From a virus: a DNA stretch of 64,000 nt. Shown piece by piece: positions 35,242 to 56,390 of the stretch (position 1 is the first letter of the stretch; every line of letters starts with the position of its first letter). The DNA lies in the IMG/VR virus record IMGVR_UViG_3300028034_000051, positions 1 to 64,000 of that record, one strand, 5' to 3'. The position numbers were made by a program, and so were the translations under genes. The notes under the pieces are model-generated. The model was not told the DNA's origin, made no database searches, and saw only the letters and a list, made by a program, of their open reading frames with translations.

Positions 35242-35787
35242 TTAAATATTCTTTCTTGCAAGAGCTCCATTGCCGTGGAGCTTTTTTTCATTTCTAAGCC
35301 TAATCCTATCCAGTAATACTTCAAACGTCTCAGCAAATCTAATCATTGTAAACTGTACTCCTGGAGAAACATCATAGATCTGCTCTAATTCATCCATCAT
35401 TCTTTCAAACTCTTGCTCTGTCAAATCATCTCTGCTTGTCTTATTTGTTATACCCATTGTTAACAGTTTGTCTATTGCTTCTATACCTTCAACCATCTCT
35501 TCTCTTAACTTAGCCAATACTGCAATAGGGTTATCATTAGCTCCATCCATATAAGGCGCTGTAAATATATTAGAATCACATTCTTGACACCTTTCTATTG
35601 GTAGTCTCCAGCTCTGTAACTTCTTAACTGCTTTCTTGATCACTACATCTGGTATATCAATTTCTCTTCGTTCCATGCCTGAAACAGCACTCTTTGAGTA
35701 CCCTAATATTCTGCCTAACTCTGTCTGAGAAAGCCCTCTCTGCTTTCTAGTTTCCTTTAATACTGTTGCTACACACATCATTGTCAC
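35242..35787 (-). CDS. XRE-family HTH regulator
   Basis: RKQRGLSQTELG..SAVSGMER. Confidence 0.75.
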   Translation of the reverse strand: MTMMCVATVLKETRKQRGLSQTELGRILGYSKSAVSGMERREIDIPDVVIKKAVKKLQSWRLPIERCQECDSNIFTAPYMDGANDNPIAVLAKLREEMVEGIEAIDKLLTMGITNKTSRDDLTEQEFERMMDELEQIYDVSPGVQFTMIRFAETFEVLLDRIRLRNEKKLHGNGALARKNI

Positions 35788-37981: not shown

Positions 37982-38298
37982 GCTTGGCTAAATCTCTGGG
38001 CTTACCTAGCAATTTAGACAAGCTACATGAATGGGCTAGTTTACATAATATTTACATTGCTACAGAAAACTTTGATCTAGAACTTTGGGGATATGCAACT
38101 AAATCTGACTACGATTCATATTTAGTGTTAATTAACAATCGTCTTTGTTATGAAATGCAACAAAAAGTATTAATGCATGAACTAGTACATATTCTAAAAC
38201 ATTCTCCAGGAAGTCATCCTATCTACAAGGATCAGTATGACATCGAAAAAGAAGCAGATGAATTAGCTGAAAAGATTATCAAAGATGCAAGTGGTTGA
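37978..38298 (+). CDS. ImmA/IrrE-like metallopeptidase (anti-repressor)
   Basis: HELVH and EKEAD; coupled to repressor. Confidence 0.85.
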   Translation: MSLAKSLGLPSNLDKLHEWASLHNIYIATENFDLELWGYATKSDYDSYLVLINNRLCYEMQQKVLMHELVHILKHSPGSHPIYKDQYDIEKEADELAEKIIKDASG

Positions 38299-38351
38299 TT
38301 TTTTATTTTGCTTTGCTCAGAAATATTTAGTAATATGACTAAATTAAGGAG

Positions 38352-39140
38352 GTGGTTTTAATTAAGTGTACTAAATGTGGTCAAGAAATAAATGATAATT
38401 CTAAATTTTGTCAGTATTGTGGCGCTAGACTTTATAGCACTAAAAATAATAATGAAAAATGGTACCAAAAAAAGGGTTGGATTATTGCATTATTATTTTT
38501 GTTTTTTCCTGCTGGTTTATTTTTAATGTGGAAATCAAATAAATTTAATAAAACAACTAAAATATTGGTTGCCATATTTTTTGTCTTTATGTTTATTATT
38601 ACTCCTGCTAGCCAAGAAAAGCAAAATATTAATCAAGCAAATAAAACAACAGTAGAAAACAAATCAAAAACTAATAAAAAGTCTACTTTGAATAAAGTTA
38701 ATAATAAAAATCATAAAGTCAACCCAACCGATATGACAATAGATGAGTATACTACTTATTTAGTTAATAATACAATAGGCAAAACTACTAACATGGGTAA
38801 TACTACTTTAATAAAACACACATATTCTAAAAATGATAACGAATTATTTTTAGAGTTATACGCTAATGAAAACTTTAGTTCAAATATGACTCGAAGAGGG
38901 ATCATTATGGATAGTAAAGATATATTTAAAAAATTCTTCAATGACCGAAAAGATGTACGTAGTTTAGTACTTGGATGGTACTTAACTTTAGTTGACCAAA
39001 GAGGAAATGAAAAACTAAGCAGAGTGTTATTAATAGATATGACTAAAAGCAACGCTAACACTATTAATTGGAGTAATGTAATAACTGACAATATACCTGT
39101 AATCGCTAACCATTATTGGGTTCATCCTGCTTTAAAATAA
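38352..39140 (+). CDS. Zinc-ribbon membrane protein with extracytoplasmic domain (possible superinfection exclusion)
   Basis: CTKC..FCQYCG, TM helices, low-complexity linker; lysogeny operon; RBS spacing favours ATT at 38361. Confidence 0.6.
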   Translation: MVLIKCTKCGQEINDNSKFCQYCGARLYSTKNNNEKWYQKKGWIIALLFLFFPAGLFLMWKSNKFNKTTKILVAIFFVFMFIITPASQEKQNINQANKTTVENKSKTNKKSTLNKVNNKNHKVNPTDMTIDEYTTYLVNNTIGKTTNMGNTTLIKHTYSKNDNELFLELYANENFSSNMTRRGIIMDSKDIFKKFFNDRKDVRSLVLGWYLTLVDQRGNEKLSRVLLIDMTKSNANTINWSNVITDNIPVIANHYWVHPALK

Positions 39141-39255
39141 TAAAAAATGGTTGATCTCATGAAAAAAACAGGTAATAGACCTCATTTCAGAGGTTTTCTT
39201 TTTAACTTTAAATCGAACATACATTCTTTACTTGACGCCGTAATTTGTAAAGGAG

Positions 39256-40407
39256 ATGATATTCATGGCTCACTTAAGAAAAAGAGGTGACAACTGGCAG
39301 ATTACAATCGAAGTTGGTCGTGATCCAGTCACAGGTAAACGAGAAAGAATCTATGAGACAGTCAAGGGAACTAAGAAGGAAGCAAGGAAGCGTATGCATG
39401 AACTAGCTTATCAAGTCGAAAACGGAACTTATGTAGAACCATCAGAATTAACTATGAAGGAATTTATGCTTAAATGGTATGAAGACTATTGCAAAAATAA
39501 TCTTGCCCCTTCTACGCAAGAATACTATGAGATGATCATCAATAGTCACTACATTCCTCTACTAGGTAATATTAAAATATCTGATCTTAAGCCAATGCAT
39601 ATTCAAAGCTATATTACAGAGAAGTTGAATAATGGCAGATTAGACGGTAAAGAAGGTGGTCTTTCTAGAAAATCAGTTAAGCGGCACTATACAGTCTTGA
39701 ATCAAATACTAAAATATGCTGTAAAGTTACAAGTGATTGATAGAAATCCAGCTGACCCAATAAGCCCACCTACTCCTAATAAGCCTGAAATACAAGCTAT
39801 GACCCACGAAGAGCTTAGTGAACTGTTAGAACATGTAGAAGGTTGGTTATATGATTTTATCTATATAGCATCCTTCACAGGCGCTAGAAGAGGTGAATTA
39901 TTAGCATTAAGATGGAAAGACGTAAACTTTAAAGAAAAGAAAATACAAATCAAACAGAGTGCATCTAAATTATCTGGAGGTAGATTAGTTTTTAGAGAGC
40001 CAAAAACAAATTCAAGTATTAGACCTATCGATATCGATGAAGACATTATCAAAATATTGAAACGTCGCAATAAAAAACAAAAAGAAGATAGATTGAGATT
40101 AGGCGAAAATTACAATAATGAATATGATTTAATATTTGTAAAAGAAAACGGAAATCCTTATTTCCCTGATTATGCTACAAAACAATTTAAAAAAGCCGTT
40201 AGGAAACTTGGTTTAGAAGAATATCGATTACATGATCTGCGGCATACCCATGCTACACTTATGTTGCAAGCTGGAGTTCATCCTAAAATAGTCCAGGAGC
40301 GTCTTGGGCATTCTTCTATTACTCAAACTCTTGACACTTACTCTCATGTAATTCCATCTATGCAAAAAGAGGCCGTCCAAAAACTAAAAAATAGCTTAAA
40401 AAAGTAA
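39256..40407 (+). CDS. int: Tyrosine integrase
   Basis: TGARRGE, HDLRHTHA, LGHS, Y catalytic residues; N-terminal arm-binding domain. Confidence 0.96.
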   Translation: MIFMAHLRKRGDNWQITIEVGRDPVTGKRERIYETVKGTKKEARKRMHELAYQVENGTYVEPSELTMKEFMLKWYEDYCKNNLAPSTQEYYEMIINSHYIPLLGNIKISDLKPMHIQSYITEKLNNGRLDGKEGGLSRKSVKRHYTVLNQILKYAVKLQVIDRNPADPISPPTPNKPEIQAMTHEELSELLEHVEGWLYDFIYIASFTGARRGELLALRWKDVNFKEKKIQIKQSASKLSGGRLVFREPKTNSSIRPIDIDEDIIKILKRRNKKQKEDRLRLGENYNNEYDLIFVKENGNPYFPDYATKQFKKAVRKLGLEEYRLHDLRHTHATLMLQAGVHPKIVQERLGHSSITQTLDTYSHVIPSMQKEAVQKLKNSLKK

Positions 40408-40444
40408 GTTGGGCGACAAAATGGCGACATTTTATTCTGTCAAT

Positions 40445-40481
40445 AAAAAAAGGGTTAAGAGCAAAAACACTCTTAACCCTT
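40445..40481 (-). terminator. Intrinsic terminator downstream of tRNA fragment
   Basis: 12-bp stem AAGGGTTAAGAG/CTCTTAACCCTT with T run on minus strand. Confidence 0.85.
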
Positions 40482-40501
40482 GATATTATAAGCTTCATAA
40501 G

Positions 40502-40546
40502 TGGTGCGGACAGATGGGATCGAACCATCGGCCTCCACGATGTCAA
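40502..40546 (-). tRNA. 3' half of tRNA-Val(GAC) (att core, not a complete tRNA)
   Basis: TTGACAT loop, T arm GATGG-TTCGATC-CCATC, TGTCCGC-A-CCA; 5' half missing. Confidence 0.88.
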
Positions 40547-40728
40547 TTTTATTATTGCTTTTTTTAACGTTTTTTAGAGTAAAATAAGTCTATATACATT
40601 GCTATTATAGACCCTTATTTAAATTAAATTAAAATGAAAAAAATAATCGGCGTCAAGTTTGGCGACATTGTGGCGACATGATGTCGTCATTTTTATCTAC
40701 ATTATAATAGAAATAAAAAAGACCAGCA

Positions 40729-41244
40729 TTAACTGGTCTTTGGATCACCGTATAGCCTTTTCATAGCTGCATGCGTGACCAACCAATTACTTCCTGACTT
40801 GCGAACCTCTCCTTTCTCGAATCTGTCATCATACTTTGCTTTCCTCAAAGTTGAATCCCCAAGCCCCCATTTTTCTTGAGCTTCAGCAAATGTATATACT
40901 GTGTCTAGGTTATTGAGAGAACCAACCGAAAGGCCAATTCCGTAACTAGTCTTAGGATCATTATTATCAAAATGCTTTTTTGATGTAGAAAGAAATAAGT
41001 CGGCTATAATTTCTCTATACTGTTTGCTTTTTCTATCACCTTCAAGTATCCTTTCCAAAGCAACATACAACGATTGCATGTCCTTAAGATTATTAATTCT
41101 CGTTTTCCCTTCTTTGATTAACCTAACATAGCGATCATGATTAAGCTCGTTGGCGCGTGTAGCAATAACTCCAAGATAGAAAGCGATTCTATTAACATTA
41201 TCCTCAGCTAGCTTGCTTTGTTCAAACTTCGTAATCATATCCAT
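40729..41244 (-). CDS. Accessory protein with C-terminal HTH
   Basis: AEAQEKWGLGDSTLRKA..RKSGSNWLVT..LYG. Confidence 0.7.
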   Translation of the reverse strand: MDMITKFEQSKLAEDNVNRIAFYLGVIATRANELNHDRYVRLIKEGKTRINNLKDMQSLYVALERILEGDRKSKQYREIIADLFLSTSKKHFDNNDPKTSYGIGLSVGSLNNLDTVYTFAEAQEKWGLGDSTLRKAKYDDRFEKGEVRKSGSNWLVTHAAMKRLYGDPKTS

Positions 41245-41254
41245 GATTAACCAT

Positions 41255-41290
41255 CTCCTTTTTTGTAGTTGGCTCCTTTTTTGTAGTTGG
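41255..41290. repeat. 18-bp tandem duplication including the RBS
   Basis: CTCCTTTTTTGTAGTTGG x2. Confidence 0.85.
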
Positions 41291-41323
41291 CTTTTTAATA
41301 AGCAGAAGCCTAACTGCTATCAA

Positions 41324-41803
41324 TTACTTAATATAACCTTTCTCAACAGCTAAATCATAATGTCTAGCAAACTGATCTCTATTCTCTCCAAATTCTTCTT
41401 TTCTCTTTCTTGATTCTCTTCTAAATTTGTAATCATACCATTCGCAATCACTGTATTCCTCAACAAAAACTCCAACTTTTCTTTCATCTTCAATATCATC
41501 TTCGTTGACTTCTTTCCACTCTATAACTGACTTTGGAACCCAAACTTCGTCATTAAATAATGTTGCTTTCTCGGTTTCTTGTGTAACCTCTAAGTTTGAA
41601 AACTCATTAAGTAAACATTCTTGAGCAGAGTTCTTTCTTAACCACCAATCTTCAATAATAGGTTTTTTATTCATCTCTTTTTCCTCCTTTTCTTCTTTCC
41701 AAGCTAATTTCAATGCCAAGCTCATTCTAGCTCTATAATTACCTTCAAAAGTCTTCGCCAACTTGTGTGCCTTTCTCATTAATCTGCTTAACATTGAAAT
41801 CAA
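41324..41803 (-). CDS. Hypothetical accessory protein
   Basis: LMRKAHKLAK..SLALKLAW N-terminus; own promoter. Confidence 0.6.
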   Translation of the reverse strand: MISMLSRLMRKAHKLAKTFEGNYRARMSLALKLAWKEEKEEKEMNKKPIIEDWWLRKNSAQECLLNEFSNLEVTQETEKATLFNDEVWVPKSVIEWKEVNEDDIEDERKVGVFVEEYSDCEWYDYKFRRESRKRKEEFGENRDQFARHYDLAVEKGYIK

Positions 41804-41846
41804 CTCCTCAAATTATTTTGTGCCGTCTCCATCACTTTCTATATAT

Positions 41847-41875
41847 ATTGTAACACATGCGTTACATATTGTCAA
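41847..41875 (-). promoter_or_regulatory. SigmaA promoter with overlapping palindromic operator
   Basis: TTGACA-17-TACAAT; TGTAAC-N6-GTTACA at 41849..41866. Confidence 0.75.
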
Positions 41876-41904
41876 GAGTTATTTCAATTTATTTCTATAC
41901 AAAT

Positions 41905-41935
41905 AAAAAAAGCCCCGCCACCAAACGGCAGCGGG
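41905..41935 (-). terminator. Terminator ending the lysis operon
   Basis: CCCGCTGCC-GTTT-GGTGGCGGG followed by T7. Confidence 0.85.
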
Positions 41936-41940
41936 TACGA

Positions 41941-42057
41941 TTAGAATCTGTAATTGTATTCAGCTGATATACTTTTGTTCTTGATATCTAAGTCTACATC
42001 CAGACCAGGATCGGGCAGCGTCACTTGGTATTCCCTGATTTCTTTTGCGACTTTCCC
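41941..42057 (-). CDS. -1 frame extension of 42021..42392 (VAKEIREYQVTLPDPGLDVDLDIKNKSISAEYNYRF)
   Basis: In-frame G GGA AAG at 42057..42051; -1 frame open from there to TAA just before the terminator. Confidence 0.65.
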   Translation of the reverse strand, partial: GKVAKEIREYQVTLPDPGLDVDLDIKNKSISAEYNYRF

Positions 42058-42392
42058 TTATCAACTCGCTTGATTTCATTAATATGCTTATTAAGTTCCT
42101 TGACTGCATTCTCATCCGTCTTCTCTTCCTGCTCTATTACTTCATTTCTAACCTCAGTCAGCAACTTTGCTACATCCTCATTCTCTACTCCGGCACGCTT
42201 AAGTCCATTTTTGACAGCCTTAGTTATGTCTGGGATTGATGCATAAGCTACATCGTCAATCTCATTTTCTGTGCTTTCTACAAACTCTTTTCCTTCCTTG
42301 GCTAACTTTTTGATATAACCTTTGCTTACTACAAAAGCAACAATACCACTCAATATGATAGGACCTAATGAATTCATTAATAACGCTTCCAT
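42021..42392 (-). CDS. Lysis-cassette membrane protein (single N-terminal TM; holin- or spanin-like)
   Basis: PIILSGIVAFVVS TM then charged helical domain; last gene of lysis operon. Confidence 0.65.
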   Translation of the reverse strand: MEALLMNSLGPIILSGIVAFVVSKGYIKKLAKEGKEFVESTENEIDDVAYASIPDITKAVKNGLKRAGVENEDVAKLLTEVRNEVIEQEEKTDENAVKELNKHINEIKRVDKGKSQKKSGNTK

Positions 42393-42440
42393 AAGTAACC
42401 ATCTCCTCTTAATTTTATATTTCTGTCAATTCTAATCAAA

Positions 42441-43157
42441 CTAACTCCATATATTTTGTTTCCATTCGTCGTTAATCAAATCCCTGCAAATCCCTTTGTA
42501 TCCTTCTTCATTATGATATAAGTCACAACTTATCTCTTCATAAAAATCAGGATATTTCATGATTAGACCGTGTTCAAAATGAATATCCTTCATTGAAGAT
42601 TGGAATTTTAGCATAATTGCTTCGAATTCATTATATCTTCTAGCTTGCATTCCCTTAAGATCATAGAAGCAAATTTCATTAAATTTAGATTCCATAATAA
42701 ATTCAAGTAGTTCTTTGAATTCTTTCTCGTGCATATACCCTACAACTACATTGAGCCAGATTTTATCGACATCATTTTTGTCAATTTTTCTGTCCCATGC
42801 TTCAATTTCTTTTTCATTTGTAATATTAACTCCAACTGTATATGCCTTTTGAATAAGATTGTAGTCAATATCATGATCCTTGGTCATGAATGAGGTTTTA
42901 ATATTGTGCTCAATAGCAAAATCTAGTATTTGCTCTAAATCAGGATGTAACGTCGGGTCTCCACCAACCAGATTGAATTCATTAGTCTTATTTTTGTGAG
43001 CAAGCATAAATTGCTTTATTTTGCTAAGCTCAGCAACTTCCCCTTGACCTTTATCTTTGTTATTTTGAATACAAAATCCGCAACGGAAGTTACATTCGTT
43101 AGTTATCCGTAAATCAATTAAACGAAAATGTTCATTTTCTAATTCTACATCTTGCAT
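42441..43157 (-). CDS. Radical SAM protein (238 aa)
   Basis: CNFRCGFC (CxxxCxxC) and GGDP motif; RBS AAGGAG overlapping the endolysin stop. Confidence 0.85.
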   Translation of the reverse strand: MQDVELENEHFRLIDLRITNECNFRCGFCIQNNKDKGQGEVAELSKIKQFMLAHKNKTNEFNLVGGDPTLHPDLEQILDFAIEHNIKTSFMTKDHDIDYNLIQKAYTVGVNITNEKEIEAWDRKIDKNDVDKIWLNVVVGYMHEKEFKELLEFIMESKFNEICFYDLKGMQARRYNEFEAIMLKFQSSMKDIHFEHGLIMKYPDFYEEISCDLYHNEEGYKGICRDLINDEWKQNIWS

Positions 43158-43162
43158 AATTA

Positions 43163-43666
43163 TCACTCCTTTTCAATTTCTACACGCTTCATCCACCCTC
43201 TGATGAACACCTTTTGACTCGGATCATTAAGAGCTATCTTAACGTATCTTTCACCCTGCAGGATATTCATGATCTTAACTAGCTCATCAGTATACTCAAA
43301 TTCATTAACCGCAGCTGCAGTATTGGGTCCCATAACTCCATCGATTGCTATTTCATTTTCTCGAAAGCAATTGACAGCCATTTGCAAGTGCTTCGTTGCT
43401 GTGAATACGCCCATGTTAACCGCCTGGTCAAAACATTCGATTCCTACTTGGACCGGAACATTTTCGTATTGCCAGTAGTTTTCTCGATATATTTCCTTAG
43501 CTTTCTCCAATGACAAATCCCTCATATCACCTTCATAACCTGCTGCTCTAGCCACTTCTTCAGTAATGCCAAACTTAGTAATTCCTCCTCGATCTGCTTC
43601 ATGATTGGAGTAGCCACCTTCGTAATTCAGTACTTCCTCGAATGCTTTCTCGAACTTTTTGCTCAC
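43163..43666 (-). CDS. Endolysin, glycoside hydrolase family 108 with PG-binding domain
   Basis: EGGYSNHEADRGGITKFGIT, FDQAVNMG, DGVMGPNT, FIRGWMKR. Confidence 0.92.
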   Translation of the reverse strand: MSKKFEKAFEEVLNYEGGYSNHEADRGGITKFGITEEVARAAGYEGDMRDLSLEKAKEIYRENYWQYENVPVQVGIECFDQAVNMGVFTATKHLQMAVNCFRENEIAIDGVMGPNTAAAVNEFEYTDELVKIMNILQGERYVKIALNDPSQKVFIRGWMKRVEIEKE

Positions 43667-43713
43667 ATGATCACCTCCATTTTTTGCATTAAAAAAGACA
43701 CCCTTTCAGGAGT

Positions 43714-43992
43714 CTACGAAGTTATTGCATATATTAATGACGCTATTGCTACAAGCCACCCGCCCCATTTTCTAATTGTTTCTGCTAATTCATGCTTACC
43801 TTTTTCCGTATTCTCTATCTCATTAATCTTTTCTTCGTTCTGATTAATCTTTTGATAGCTTTCCATCATATCTTGCCTTAGTCCGTTGTACCTTTTGATT
43901 ACACTTCGAGTCTGTGTCATTTCTTCTTTGAGACTTTGGATCATATCGAATAGCTCTTTATTTGAATACCACTCTTTTTCATTGTCTGTCAT
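43714..43992 (-). CDS. Holin-like protein (paralog of 48..329)
   Basis: WYSNK N-terminal motif and identical C-terminal TM. Confidence 0.7.
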   Translation of the reverse strand: MTDNEKEWYSNKELFDMIQSLKEEMTQTRSVIKRYNGLRQDMMESYQKINQNEEKINEIENTEKGKHELAETIRKWGGWLVAIASLIYAITS

Positions 43993-44033
43993 TGACCACA
44001 CCCCTTCAAGAAAAAATCCACCTCCCCAGGTGG

Positions 44034-44390
44034 TTAATCCGTAATGCTTTCTGTAATTTTGAGAGTTCCCTCGAACGCCTTATATCTTCTACCAGTTGAA
44101 TCTTCTACTAACGTTAATTCATGCTTATATAGCCCTGTTGCTATATCAGTATCTATGTTAGTTATATTGATTTCAATTTGTCCGTTCAGAGCATCTAGTA
44201 TATCGATTCCATTTCCATCTGACTTGTTGATTACTTCAGTTTTTGTATTCGGGTCCTCAGCCACATACTTCAAAGAAAAATCACCTAATGGAACTTCAAC
44301 TCCATTATCAGTGATAGTGTGCGGGTATGTTCGATCAATCCTTTGAGAAATCTCATAGTTCACTTGAGTTACATCATTCATAAGCATCAC
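44034..44390 (-). CDS. BppU-like baseplate/fibre-associated protein
   Basis: DALNGQIEI..DT..G.YKHEL beta-sandwich pattern. Confidence 0.5.
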   Translation of the reverse strand: MMLMNDVTQVNYEISQRIDRTYPHTITDNGVEVPLGDFSLKYVAEDPNTKTEVINKSDGNGIDILDALNGQIEINITNIDTDIATGLYKHELTLVEDSTGRRYKAFEGTLKITESITD

Positions 44391-45597
44391 CTACTTTCAC
44401 AATATCTAGAGTTTTGTTATCTGCAACACGTGTGATCTCCAATTCTTCCTCTGTTGCTTTTCTAGTTATTTGTGGATTAACGTCCAAAATCTTACGAAAT
44501 ATATCGACTACTCTTGCCATATCAAATGCAATTGGATTACTGTAATATCCTTCCATCTCTGTTGTTGATTCTTTTGATATGTCATCTGTTAATATTGATG
44601 ACGAATAGTAGCCTGGCATAGTTAAAACTACATCTAAAGGTGGATTTAAGGCACTATCTATTAAGAGCACATTCTTTCCACTATACCTACCAATATATAA
44701 AATCCTGTTACTTAACACTTGCAATCCTTCACTTATTCCTGTATTCACTTTTAGCCTTGTATTAAGTGAACAATCAAGATTGTAAATATCAGCATAGGCT
44801 TGGTATGTGCTATTTTCGTATTTATAAAGTCCACACACAAAATATTCACCTGTAGTATTGAATTTTAAGTTATTAATAAATTCTGCAACTTGATTTTCTG
44901 ATAGTATGTCACCTGTTTGTGCATCAATTGTTCTTATCCAATTATTATTATTTACATCTCTATAAAACATAGCAATTCTGTTGCTTACACTTGAATAATC
45001 AAAAGCACGTATGTCTGTATCTTTATCATTGGGCATACTATTTAATATATTGCCTGTATCATAATCAACAAACGTTACTGATGAATTTTCTCTGCTATGT
45101 CTCACTTGTATGAATGTTTGTTCATCTATAAATAAAATTTCTGATATCCCTCTTGCAAGCATCGACTCAATAAATGTACCATCAACATCATATTTGCATA
45201 AATCATACTCCCCAACTAATATTTGAGTATTATCAGGTGACATTTCTATGAAATAGACATCATAAGAATATTGTGCTTCTTGCAAATCAAAGAATTTAAC
45301 AATTTCCCCCGTTGATATTGTAATCTTGAGCACTTCACAATTAGTTGTAACAGCAAATAATATATCATCAGTGTACCATGTAATGTCTTTTAGTTCACCG
45401 CCATTAAATTGGTTTTCCCAATATCCATGCAATGTGGCAGTTTTGTAGTCATATATGAAAATCTCATTTCCATCATGATAGGCATCACCATTGAATAGTG
45501 CTATTAGTTCTTTGTTAGGACTTAAATAAGTGTTCTTCCATGAGCCATAAGCCCTACTATCAATATTAAAACTGAATATAGTATCGCCCTGTGCCAT
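44374..45597 (-). CDS. Beta-propeller (WD40/YVTN-like) tail-associated protein
   Basis: Repeated SPD/SPN, D..TG turns at about 40-aa spacing. Confidence 0.6.
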   Translation of the reverse strand: MAQGDTIFSFNIDSRAYGSWKNTYLSPNKELIALFNGDAYHDGNEIFIYDYKTATLHGYWENQFNGGELKDITWYTDDILFAVTTNCEVLKITISTGEIVKFFDLQEAQYSYDVYFIEMSPDNTQILVGEYDLCKYDVDGTFIESMLARGISEILFIDEQTFIQVRHSRENSSVTFVDYDTGNILNSMPNDKDTDIRAFDYSSVSNRIAMFYRDVNNNNWIRTIDAQTGDILSENQVAEFINNLKFNTTGEYFVCGLYKYENSTYQAYADIYNLDCSLNTRLKVNTGISEGLQVLSNRILYIGRYSGKNVLLIDSALNPPLDVVLTMPGYYSSSILTDDISKESTTEMEGYYSNPIAFDMARVVDIFRKILDVNPQITRKATEEELEITRVADNKTLDIVKVGDAYE

Positions 45598-45598
45598 A

Positions 45599-45820
45599 TT
45601 AATCTACTCCCCATTGAGCCAGAATATTTTTTGCTTCTGTTTTGGTTATTTCTTGTATTTGGGCTGATTGTTCAACTTTCATATCAACTGAATCCTCTGC
45701 TCTCCAAATACATTGCGTCTCGTCTGGAGAATAACCACAATTACTGTAATCCTTGTGACCAACATCTGGATAACTAAAACTAGTTCCAATCTTATCAGTA
45801 TTAATAAGATAATATTTCAT
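45599..45820 (-). CDS. Hypothetical protein
   Basis: ORF in tail operon. Confidence 0.55.
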   Translation of the reverse strand: MKYYLINTDKIGTSFSYPDVGHKDYSNCGYSPDETQCIWRAEDSVDMKVEQSAQIQEITKTEAKNILAQWGVD

Positions 45821-45835
45821 TCTTAATCACCGTCC

Positions 45836-46198
45836 TTATACTATTTTTGGAACTTCAAGCGGACACTTAATTGTCGCCTTATCTGCATCTTGAGTTAACT
45901 CCGTAGTAGAAACACTTTGAACTGGGCCCAGTGAATCTGTAGAACTACCATTAGGAAATAATACCCCTTGATCAATAGTAACTGGTAATGGAATATCCGA
46001 GTCACTACCATTAATCTCAACTGAAAGCTCCATTGGGTTATTCCCTTGTGTATGCGTCCAACTTACTCTGCTATCAGACAACGGCAATCTTACAATTGCA
46101 TTCCCGTTGTCATTCTGTAATTCTATATGAATACTACTGTTACGGATCAATGTTTCCCGAATCCATTCGTAGCCGTTTGAATTGAATTCAACTGCCAA
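45836..46198 (-). CDS. Hypothetical tail-associated protein
   Basis: ORF in tail operon with RBS. Confidence 0.55.
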   Translation of the reverse strand: MAVEFNSNGYEWIRETLIRNSSIHIELQNDNGNAIVRLPLSDSRVSWTHTQGNNPMELSVEINGSDSDIPLPVTIDQGVLFPNGSSTDSLGPVQSVSTTELTQDADKATIKCPLEVPKIV

Positions 46199-55977: not shown

Positions 55978-56390
55978 TAATCTTCACCTCCCTCTTCAGT
56001 ACTGTCAAACACTTCTACATTTGGATTCTGCATCATTTGCTTACTTTCATTAGCTAATCCAATGCTTGCAAAGTCCTGTTGACCACTTTTATTTTGACTA
56101 TCATTTTGCTTAAGTTCAATAATCTTCTCCGGTGGATCATCAGCAAATGCAGCTCCAATAGCAAAACGCAAAATATTATATTCTAAATTAGCTTCTTTCA
56201 TCTTACGGTTTTGAATAGCAGCGTAAATATCAGCTATTTGTCTCGGACTATACCGGATCACAACTTCATCTGGCCCCATTTTGTATTCAGTTGCAATTTC
56301 TTCTACTACTTCAAATTCTGTTACCCTCGCAGATTCTTCACTACTCCCATCACTGGCTTCATCACTCCTGCGAGAGACTGCAAGTTTTTT
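55977..56390 (-). CDS. Tail chaperone gpGT-like extension via -1 frameshift
   Basis: -1 frame is open from A AAA AAC (56390..56384) into ORF 55977..56279. Confidence 0.75.
   Translation of the reverse strand, partial: KKLAVSRRSDEASDGSSEESARVTEFEVVEEIATEYKMGPDEVVIRYSPRQIADIYAAIQNRKMKEANLEYNILRFAIGAAFADDPPEKIIELKQNDSQNKSGQQDFASIGLANESKQMMQNPNVEVFDSTEEGGED

Follow-up and report, generated by a model that had tools for sequence, protein, structure and literature searches.

To our knowledge, radical S-adenosylmethionine (SAM) enzymes are common in phages, and most of them lack a known substrate. Among the described systems that invite comparison with the locus studied here, the maturase SuiB combines an N-terminal leader-binding domain with a C-terminal SPASM domain holding two extra clusters, and DarE and DynA are SPASM-type radical SAM maturases of Gram-negative bacteria, in whose genomes a conserved precursor gene adjoins theirs. 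Darobactin and dynobactin are beta-strand mimics that bind BamA, and the end of the lysis cassette in phages of Gram-negative hosts is the place of the spanins (Rz/Rz1 type). We have analyzed a stretch of 64,000 nucleotides (the window), which is the first part of the 72.4-kb virus record IMGVR_UViG_3300028034_000051, and in which a prophage lysis cassette codes for a radical SAM enzyme of 238 amino acids (aa). This enzyme is exceptionally small and has hardly any relatives, and its gene is directly connected to that of the endolysin. With little more than even confidence, we read the region as the late/lysis operon end of a temperate, Firmicute-type tailed prophage and the enzyme as optional single-gene cargo, probably not a peptide cross-linker. 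The features that this reading needs first are as follows.

43163-43666, minus strand: endolysin of 167 aa, GH108 muramidase with PG_binding_3 (Pfam, phrog_315).
43166-43171, minus strand: ribosome-binding site (RBS) AAGGAG of the radical SAM gene, read from the sequence.
42441-43157, minus strand: radical SAM enzyme, 238 aa from ATG (Pfam Radical_SAM, PF04055).
42412-43174: radical SAM gene with its RBS, a gene-sized insertion/deletion of 763 bases (run X5, record 24).

The enzyme gene is certainly real. Its AAGGAG immediately precedes the endolysin TGA (43163-43165), 8 nucleotides (nt) before the ATG at 43157, and the list of open reading frames (ORFs) also gives an alternative GTG start at 43166, from which the product would have 241 aa. 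These coordinates confirm the arrangement reported in a preliminary description of the locus, where a 238-aa protein with CxxxCxxC and GGDP motifs was placed between the endolysin and the last lysis gene, with its RBS at the endolysin stop. Promoter-like sites show no excess (15, against 14.4 expected by chance), and those on the minus strand inside the cassette matched only 9 of 12 positions. As the RBS abuts the endolysin stop and promoters are not in excess, co-expression with the endolysin is the simplest reading, and the enzyme is likely to be expressed together with the lysis genes, in agreement with what that description had expected.

The contigs of four public runs were compared with the window over 40400-45000. 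In record 24 of run X5 (707 bases, depth 9.4), position 42411 is joined to 43175, and 10 other letters replace the 763 bases that contain the radical SAM gene and its RBS. Read in frame, these 10 letters provide the endolysin stop codon and then directly the RBS of the following gene, which codes for a 123-aa membrane protein, and the join reads as a compact native junction. The X5 contig differs from the window at 3 of 391 positions in the 123-aa gene (99% identity) and at 39 of 306 in the endolysin part. The existence of a natural cassette without the enzyme implies that the enzyme is optional cargo and not a core lysis part, and also that the 123-aa gene and the small ORF ending in YNYRF that follows it do not require it as a partner. 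The G+C content is 0.30-0.32 across the enzyme gene and 0.36-0.41 in the flanks, which suggests gain in this prophage over loss in the X5 variant. An unrelated insert had been the fallback of the preliminary description, and it fits both this difference in G+C and a contig that lacks exactly this gene. Enzyme relatives were absent from all 12 endolysin-related IMG/VR loci; nine of these are copies of one Halanaerobium-type prophage, and eight of the nine fill the corresponding slot, behind the endolysin, with a membrane ORF of 82/85 aa plus a gene for DUF5662.

The Pfam profile PF04055 matches the enzyme at 47.2 bits (cut-off, 29.5) over residues 21 to 107 only, which is the cluster-binding third of the protein. 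The CX3CX2C motif by which the superfamily is recognized is formed by C22, C26, and C29, and GGDP occupies residues 65 to 68; the radical SAM enzyme is intact and has a single [4Fe-4S]/SAM site. No match to the SPASM/twitch family PF13186 was found in Pfam, and the protein ends at residue 238. Its extra cysteines (163, 211, and 224) are V, S, and Y in P0003, one of its two relatives, and as only C22, C26, and C29 are invariant among the three family members, there is no auxiliary cluster. The doubt expressed earlier about a full SPASM cluster was therefore well placed. A PqqD-like leader-binding domain was found neither in the enzyme, whose cluster motif begins at residue 22, nor in the scanned neighboring ORFs (Pfam, NCBIfam, and PHROGs). 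In NCBIfam, 49 families match, and among the 25 best of them no cut-off was approached. QueE (23.5 bits; cut-off, 260), MoaA (36.8 and 36.5 bits; cut-offs, 325 and 284), and NrdG (27.4 bits; cut-off, 131) all stay below their equivalog values, and the comparison with MoaA, QueE, and viperin that had been proposed for the enzyme left all three under the curated cut-offs.

An exhaustive HMMER search of 1.84 billion representative proteins returned 1293 proteins at E <= 0.001 and two at E <= 1e-30, namely, the enzyme itself and P0003 (225 aa, 43% identity to the enzyme). A word-indexed search gave only the enzyme itself and P0002 (281 aa, 74% identical), and both relatives come from Logan assemblies. 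P0002 has a cysteine-rich N-terminal extension of 43 residues with four CxxC pairs, zinc-ribbon-like; its contig is 1.6 kb long, and the extension may reflect either a true fusion or a gene called too long. Viral contigs and genome contigs contained no relative at all, and metagenome contigs only four distant N-terminal matches (27 to 33% identity). By these searches the family is extremely small, nearly orphan. Nevertheless, its three members, at 43 to 74% identity, share 85 invariant columns, which points to purifying selection.

At a larger distance, we compared the family with ten small viral radical SAM proteins of 264 to 285 aa taken from the HMMER search, and hhalign joined the two with 99.8% probability (E 1.1e-27, 218 columns, query residues 11 to 232). 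Full-length matches to phrog_16999 ("Fe-S oxidoreductase") are given by these ten proteins and by the C-terminal halves of relatives of 444 to 502 aa; P0003 matches it over residues 3 to 217 and the window enzyme alone over residues 14 to 86 only. We can place the enzyme as an outlying, divergent, and very rare member of a PHROG 16999-like group of phage radical SAM proteins, which has members in Salmonella phage Arash, Rhodothermus phage RM378, and the Microcystis phage Ma-LMM01 group, while in Thermus phages the match is limited to the N-terminal cluster region. BFVD and the ESM Atlas also gave unnamed phage radical SAM proteins, and the best BFVD matches are of the same kind. In the three lytic phages inspected (Arash, RM378, and Ma-LMM01), the relatives without exception lie among replication genes, with DNA polymerase, RNA ligase, poly(A) polymerase, helicase, primase, and resolvase genes as neighbors.

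The AlphaFold 2 model of the enzyme, built from a 38-sequence alignment (predicted local distance difference test score [pLDDT], 88.6) and replacing one built from 3 sequences (pLDDT 66), has a radical SAM core with a partial TIM barrel and aligns over residues 5 to 238 with many solved enzymes at Z values of 12 to 17. SuiB ranks first (Z 17.4, root mean square deviation of 3.0 over 216 aligned residues, SuiB residues 97 to 368 only), followed by viperins (Z 15.3, 201 residues), GDGT-MAS (15.2), and BlsE, CteB, SkfB, and PqqE (about 14.7). The slope is flat, and SuiB is ahead of viperin and the others by only about 2 Z units. A profile search of the PDB, with SuiB as the best match (3.5e-12), gave the order of the structure search, within noise.

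In the explanation that we favor, the gene would be a single-gene cassette that separates the endolysin from the lysis-cassette gene that follows, and translational coupling to the endolysin would place its product late in infection. Our best guess is that the enzyme would then act on a nucleotide, a nucleic acid, or another small molecule in the late-infection cytoplasm, a chemistry proposed by analogy with single-domain enzymes of viperin-like architecture, and we do not think that it cross-links the neighboring peptide. Several observations weigh against this explanation. No tool discriminated between substrate candidates, and the peptide-modifying cores of SuiB and SkfB top the structure and profile matches, narrowly over the viperin-like ones. 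The relatives in replication modules share only about 22% identity with the enzyme. Unrelated cargo is not usually coupled so tightly to an endolysin, and the coupling could mean a lysis-linked role. As for the cassette, the difference may stem from a deletion in the X5 variant and not from an insertion here; the X5 contig stops at 42021 and is silent on the small ORF without the enzyme, and P0002 and P0003 might adjoin similar small ORFs.

Cargo of this kind could also serve for defense, as a viperin-like or other enzyme whose modified nucleotide or similar product blocks competing phages, but we regard this as unlikely. The prokaryotic viperin (pVip) models are the best ones in both NCBIfam (NF038283, 54 bits) and PADLOC (54.4 bits), the enzyme has the single domain, the length, and the lack of an auxiliary cluster of a viperin, in line with the structural alignment over 201 residues, and its gene is close to a prophage end, a place where cargo accumulates. 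However, the cut-off of NF038283 is 180 bits, and the match extends only from residue 17 to 108 on profile positions 4 to 103 of 281, just as the two PADLOC models cover only the N-terminal part (residues 17 to 107 and 17 to 135). In addition, without its own promoter and with its coupling to the endolysin, the gene is probably not expressed in the lysogen, and no kinase or other partner gene adjoins it.

The same coupling inside the cassette would suit an enzyme that acts late, and without being essential, on a phage or host protein that governs the timing of lysis or the breakdown of the envelope, for instance the first protein of the cassette (95 aa), the 123-aa protein, or the endolysin. 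SuiB, SkfB, PqqE, and the PflA-activase are among its structural neighbors, and the DUF5662 gene in the same slot of the Halanaerobium-type cassette is also enzyme-like. This proposal seems rather improbable to us, as neither a substrate motif nor a glycyl-radical partner nor a recognition domain came to light and a variant without the enzyme gene exists.

The preliminary description had put forward a more specific idea, a lysis aid resembling a ribosomally synthesized and post-translationally modified peptide (RiPP), in which the enzyme modifies the C-terminal YNYRF strand. In the form considered here, the strand would be cross-linked or otherwise modified, either within the 27-aa peptide or on a 123-aa protein extended by frameshifting, and the product would act at lysis on the outer membrane or BamA. 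Three more features are involved.

42021-42392, minus strand: 123-aa membrane protein, N-terminal hydrophobic segment and then a charged helical region.
42051-42057, minus strand: G_GGA_AAG heptamer, in the 0 frame at codons G113-K114 of the 123-aa gene.
41941-42024, minus strand: ORF of 27 aa ending in AEYNYRF, its GTG overlapping the TGA of the 123-aa gene.

Whether this idea is meaningful depends on the host, which probably belongs to the Halanaerobiales, Firmicutes that have an outer membrane. The capsid and the integrase share about 35 to 37% identity with Firmicute-phage counterparts, and the endolysin matches 772 phage records, whose commonest host genera among those listed are all Gram-negative. 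The 123-aa protein has one relative (125 aa, 79% identical), in a metagenome-assembled genome named Candidatus Frackibacter by NCBI, a lineage of the Halobacteroidaceae within the Halanaerobiales, and the endolysin-related loci carry a protein with relatives named from Halanaerobium saccharolyticum and H. salsuginis. Halanaerobiales have a lipopolysaccharide outer membrane with homologues of BamA, Skp, OmpM, and LolA, according to an excerpt of PMC5007114. An argument based on the absence of Lol in diderm Firmicutes was dropped, as in the same excerpt that absence holds for Negativicutes, while Halanaerobiales have LolA homologues (PMC5007114). A host order with an outer membrane and BamA makes the idea of a beta-signal meaningful here; a search of the open-access literature found no paper on the means by which phages get through this membrane in diderm Firmicutes.

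In the Halanaerobium-type cassette (locus L002, 4622-7216; also L004, L005, L006, L008, and L010), a 125-aa tail-anchored protein, the GH108 endolysin, the 82-aa membrane ORF, and DUF5662 are followed by proteins of 121 and 146 aa. The 121-aa protein is N-in, with membrane and coiled-coil segments, and the 146-aa protein is a secreted coiled coil without cysteine that ends in GFDFQF or GFDFRF. A 74-aa ORF with two transmembrane segments comes next in four of the six loci (L002, L004, L008, and L010). The 121/146 pair looks spanin-like, with an outer partner that has no lipobox and may reach the outer membrane differently. These end genes look analogous to the 123-aa gene and the small ORF, and no homology is claimed; a resemblance by eye between the small ORF and the F-ended 146-aa protein was dropped, with an HMM E value of 92 among 2253 six-frame pieces.

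The N terminus of the 123-aa protein (MEALLMNS) has no positive charge, and K24, K28, K29, K32, and K35 lie past the hydrophobic segment, from which the positive-inside rule would predict an N-out/C-in protein with a cytoplasmic C-terminal part. A C-terminal part of this kind would hold any C-terminal extension in the cytoplasm until lysis. A reading of this protein as a spanin was rejected, as this charge topology is opposite to that of an inner-membrane spanin (N-in/C-out). The protein has no family match in Pfam, NCBIfam, or PHROGs, and its ESM Atlas scores are below 0.8. Viral, genome, and metagenome contigs contained no loci with relatives of the 123-aa gene, and likewise none related to the neighboring 407-aa gene.

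The small ORF was confirmed as described, 27 aa from a GTG that overlaps the TGA, in the -1 frame. This frame is open for 38 codons from 42057, the GTG is its only start codon, and only a weak AGGGAA stands upstream. Run X2, an independent sample, is identical to the window over 41871-42583, with no insertion or deletion, which implies that the two-frame arrangement is not a one-off assembly error. Neither the 27-aa ORF nor the 38-codon frame has a cysteine or a signal peptide, and the lipobox of an outer-membrane spanin is thus missing from both. When its own bases are shuffled, 6.6% of the shuffles stay open over 38 codons, and the small ORF is not beyond chance. Its codon usage (0.148 per codon, the 6th percentile of real gene windows) is coding-like and not significant, as 13.8% of the open shuffles do as well. 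The ending Y-x-Y-x-F, with A and I further upstream, is the kind of pattern looked for in an outer-membrane beta-signal, which would close a beta-barrel protein, and there is no barrel. An aromatic-x-aromatic-x-F end is found in 8 of 2253 six-frame pieces, with this one as the sole case on the coding strand, in a count made for a motif that was sought after it had been seen.

At the G_GGA_AAG heptamer, the -1 frame has a TAA immediately before the site, is then open for 36 codons, and runs beyond the 0-frame stop, so that a -1 frameshift product would be about 150 aa long and end in YNYRF. The ORFs of the window contain 93 in-frame X_XXY_YYZ heptamers, and the -1 frame passes the stop in four of the 93, the tail-chaperone site included. 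No stable stimulatory hairpin was found downstream of the heptamer (z = -0.52 for the fold of 163 nt). A -1 frameshift at this site that yields the small-ORF product is suggestive only, and there are three readings of the small ORF: chance, a coupled 27-aa peptide from the GTG, or a -1 frameshift product. The heptamer gives one concrete, testable lead on the YNYRF frame. Two further sites were seen in the window. An A_AAA_AAC heptamer (56384-56390), in a 143-aa gene upstream of the tape-measure gene, has a -1 frame open for 135 codons and corresponds to the expected tail-assembly-chaperone frameshift of the right of two prophages in the window, and an A_AAA_AAG heptamer (35281-35287), 13 codons before the stop of a 181-aa gene (35242-35787), has a -1 frame open for 42 codons.

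Taken with these data, the RiPP-like lysis aid appears quite improbable. The enzyme and the small ORF lie on one transcript with one terminator, the host order has a lipopolysaccharide outer membrane and BamA in the excerpt cited above (PMC5007114), the aromatic ending is rare, the SuiB core heads the structural matches, and the C-terminal part of the 123-aa protein, if cytoplasmic, would be within the reach of the enzyme. On the other hand, the SPASM/twitch cysteines and a leader-binding domain are missing, the peptide-maturase models among the 25 best NCBIfam matches score 21 to 32 bits against cut-offs of 265 to 650, and in the X5 cassette the enzyme is missing while the 123-aa gene is 99% identical. 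The small ORF lacks a signal peptide, its codon usage can be matched by shuffles, and the distant relatives of the enzyme, among replication genes, occur without any such peptide. The earlier proposal has in its favor that the host probably has the outer membrane on which a beta-signal could act; no test linked the enzyme to the peptide, and the data do not support a connection of the enzyme with the YNYRF frame, though they leave room for one. That description had also named lysis cassettes with the beta-signal ORF but without the enzyme as evidence against its idea, and one such cassette was found for the 123-aa gene, with the small ORF beyond the end of the X5 contig. A co-fold of the enzyme with 4Fe-4S, SAM, and the 38-residue open frame returned "no answer" (score 0.00), evidence neither way.

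We find it very improbable that the enzyme is an inert passenger, recently gained, functionless, and heading for loss. The patchy presence of the gene among relatives (X5) and the extreme rarity of the family would fit a passenger, but the frame is intact, all cluster and SAM motifs are kept, the three members keep their 85 invariant columns, and the RBS is good. Equally hard to credit is a scheme of two-way decoding of the last lysis gene, in which the 123-aa protein would be the plain product, a -1 slip at G_GGA_AAG or a coupled GTG restart would add or release a beta-signal-like hairpin ending in YNYRF, the enzyme would cross-link this hairpin in the cytoplasm, and the hairpin, once the holin has opened the inner membrane, would reach the outer membrane and jam or hijack BamA, as a darobactin-like substitute for spanins.

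The optional enzyme gene, which we still prefer to see as cargo, is among the last genes of the late/lysis transcript, beside the attachment junction. The surrounding features are the following.

43714-44001, minus strand: first lysis-cassette gene (95 aa), its product with a coiled coil plus a transmembrane segment at the C terminus.
41914-41935, minus strand: intrinsic terminator, 9-pair hairpin plus T run, closing the late/lysis transcript.
41847-41875, minus strand: near-consensus promoter-like site (TTGACA, 17-nt spacer, TG, TACAAT), 11 of 12 matches.
41324-41803, minus strand: 159-aa gene, with its own strong promoter-like site.
40729-41244, minus strand: HTH_59/excisionase-like gene.

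The window contains two prophage-like genomes in tandem, and minus-strand genes predominate. The left prophage has a repressor region and, at its end, a plus-strand integrase (39256-40407). Between the two prophages lies the 3' part of a tRNA, read from the sequence on the minus strand at about 40502-40547. ARAGORN found no whole tRNA in the 64-kb window, and an Rfam scan of 38000-46000 gave no match. The right prophage starts after this tRNA part, and from the junction to the right its genes follow, all on the minus strand, in the order HTH_59/excisionase-like gene, 159-aa gene, terminator, small ORF, 123-aa gene, enzyme, endolysin, 95-aa gene, and tail genes. In runs X2 and X3, the contigs over 40400-40546 go on into other letters that resemble the rest of the tRNA, which suggests that some genomes carry the left prophage at the tRNA without the right one. 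The word "GGCGACA" is repeated on either side of the junction, at 40409-40432 and at 40648-40682, perhaps as arm sites for the integrase.

The terminator begins 5 nt past the stop of the small ORF, and the promoter-like site directly after it would drive the 159-aa and HTH_59/excisionase-like genes (40729-41803), a module that in run X5 has a different left neighbor. At the other end of the cassette, the 95-aa protein may be holin-like or XhlA-like, judging from its architecture only, and no Pfam family matches it at E < 0.01. The left prophage encodes a copy of it at 48-329 (93 aa, 66% identity), and the endolysin of that prophage would fall beyond the start of the contig. Compared with the gene preceding the endolysin in the Halanaerobium-type loci, the 95-aa protein shows 42% identity in seven of nine and 36% in the other two. 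The endolysin matches Glyco_hydro_108 (2.1e-23) and PG_binding_3 (3e-13) in Pfam and phrog_315 at 1.1e-43, and has no signal sequence.

Natural cassettes with and without the enzyme are a ready-made comparison for finding its role. The breaching of the outer membrane by phages of diderm Firmicutes appears little studied, and the lysis cassettes seen here have no recognizable spanins, with odd genes in their place, such as DUF5662 or the F-ended secreted coiled-coil proteins. If the frameshift or peptide reading were true, it would mean a new way of attacking the outer membrane; if false, the enzyme would be ordinary phage cargo.

Among the known systems, SuiB, which makes the Lys-Trp cross-link of streptide (PDB 5v1q, 5v1s, and 5v1t), has 425 to 459 residues, compared with 238 here, and the window enzyme has neither its leader-binding domain nor its SPASM domain. 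With DarE and DynA, which we set apart by their general description, it has radical SAM chemistry in common, while the SPASM domain is missing and a conserved precursor is not evident. The 123-aa gene and the small ORF occupy the same position at the cassette end as spanins, but with the opposite topology and without a lipobox cysteine. The heptamer G_GGA_AAG is that of the lambda G/GT frameshift, and the tail-chaperone gene of the window itself has a comparable slip site. Viperin and pVip share with the enzyme a single domain, a similar length, and the absence of an auxiliary cluster; however, pVip is a stand-alone defense gene, whereas the window enzyme is coupled to late genes. The PHROG 16999-like proteins (RM378 p108, Ma-LMM01 gp128, and the C-terminal half of Arash gp146) have the same single-cluster core, also without SPASM, and are equally phage-borne, but they belong to the replication modules of large lytic phages, while the enzyme described here belongs to the lysis operon of a prophage.

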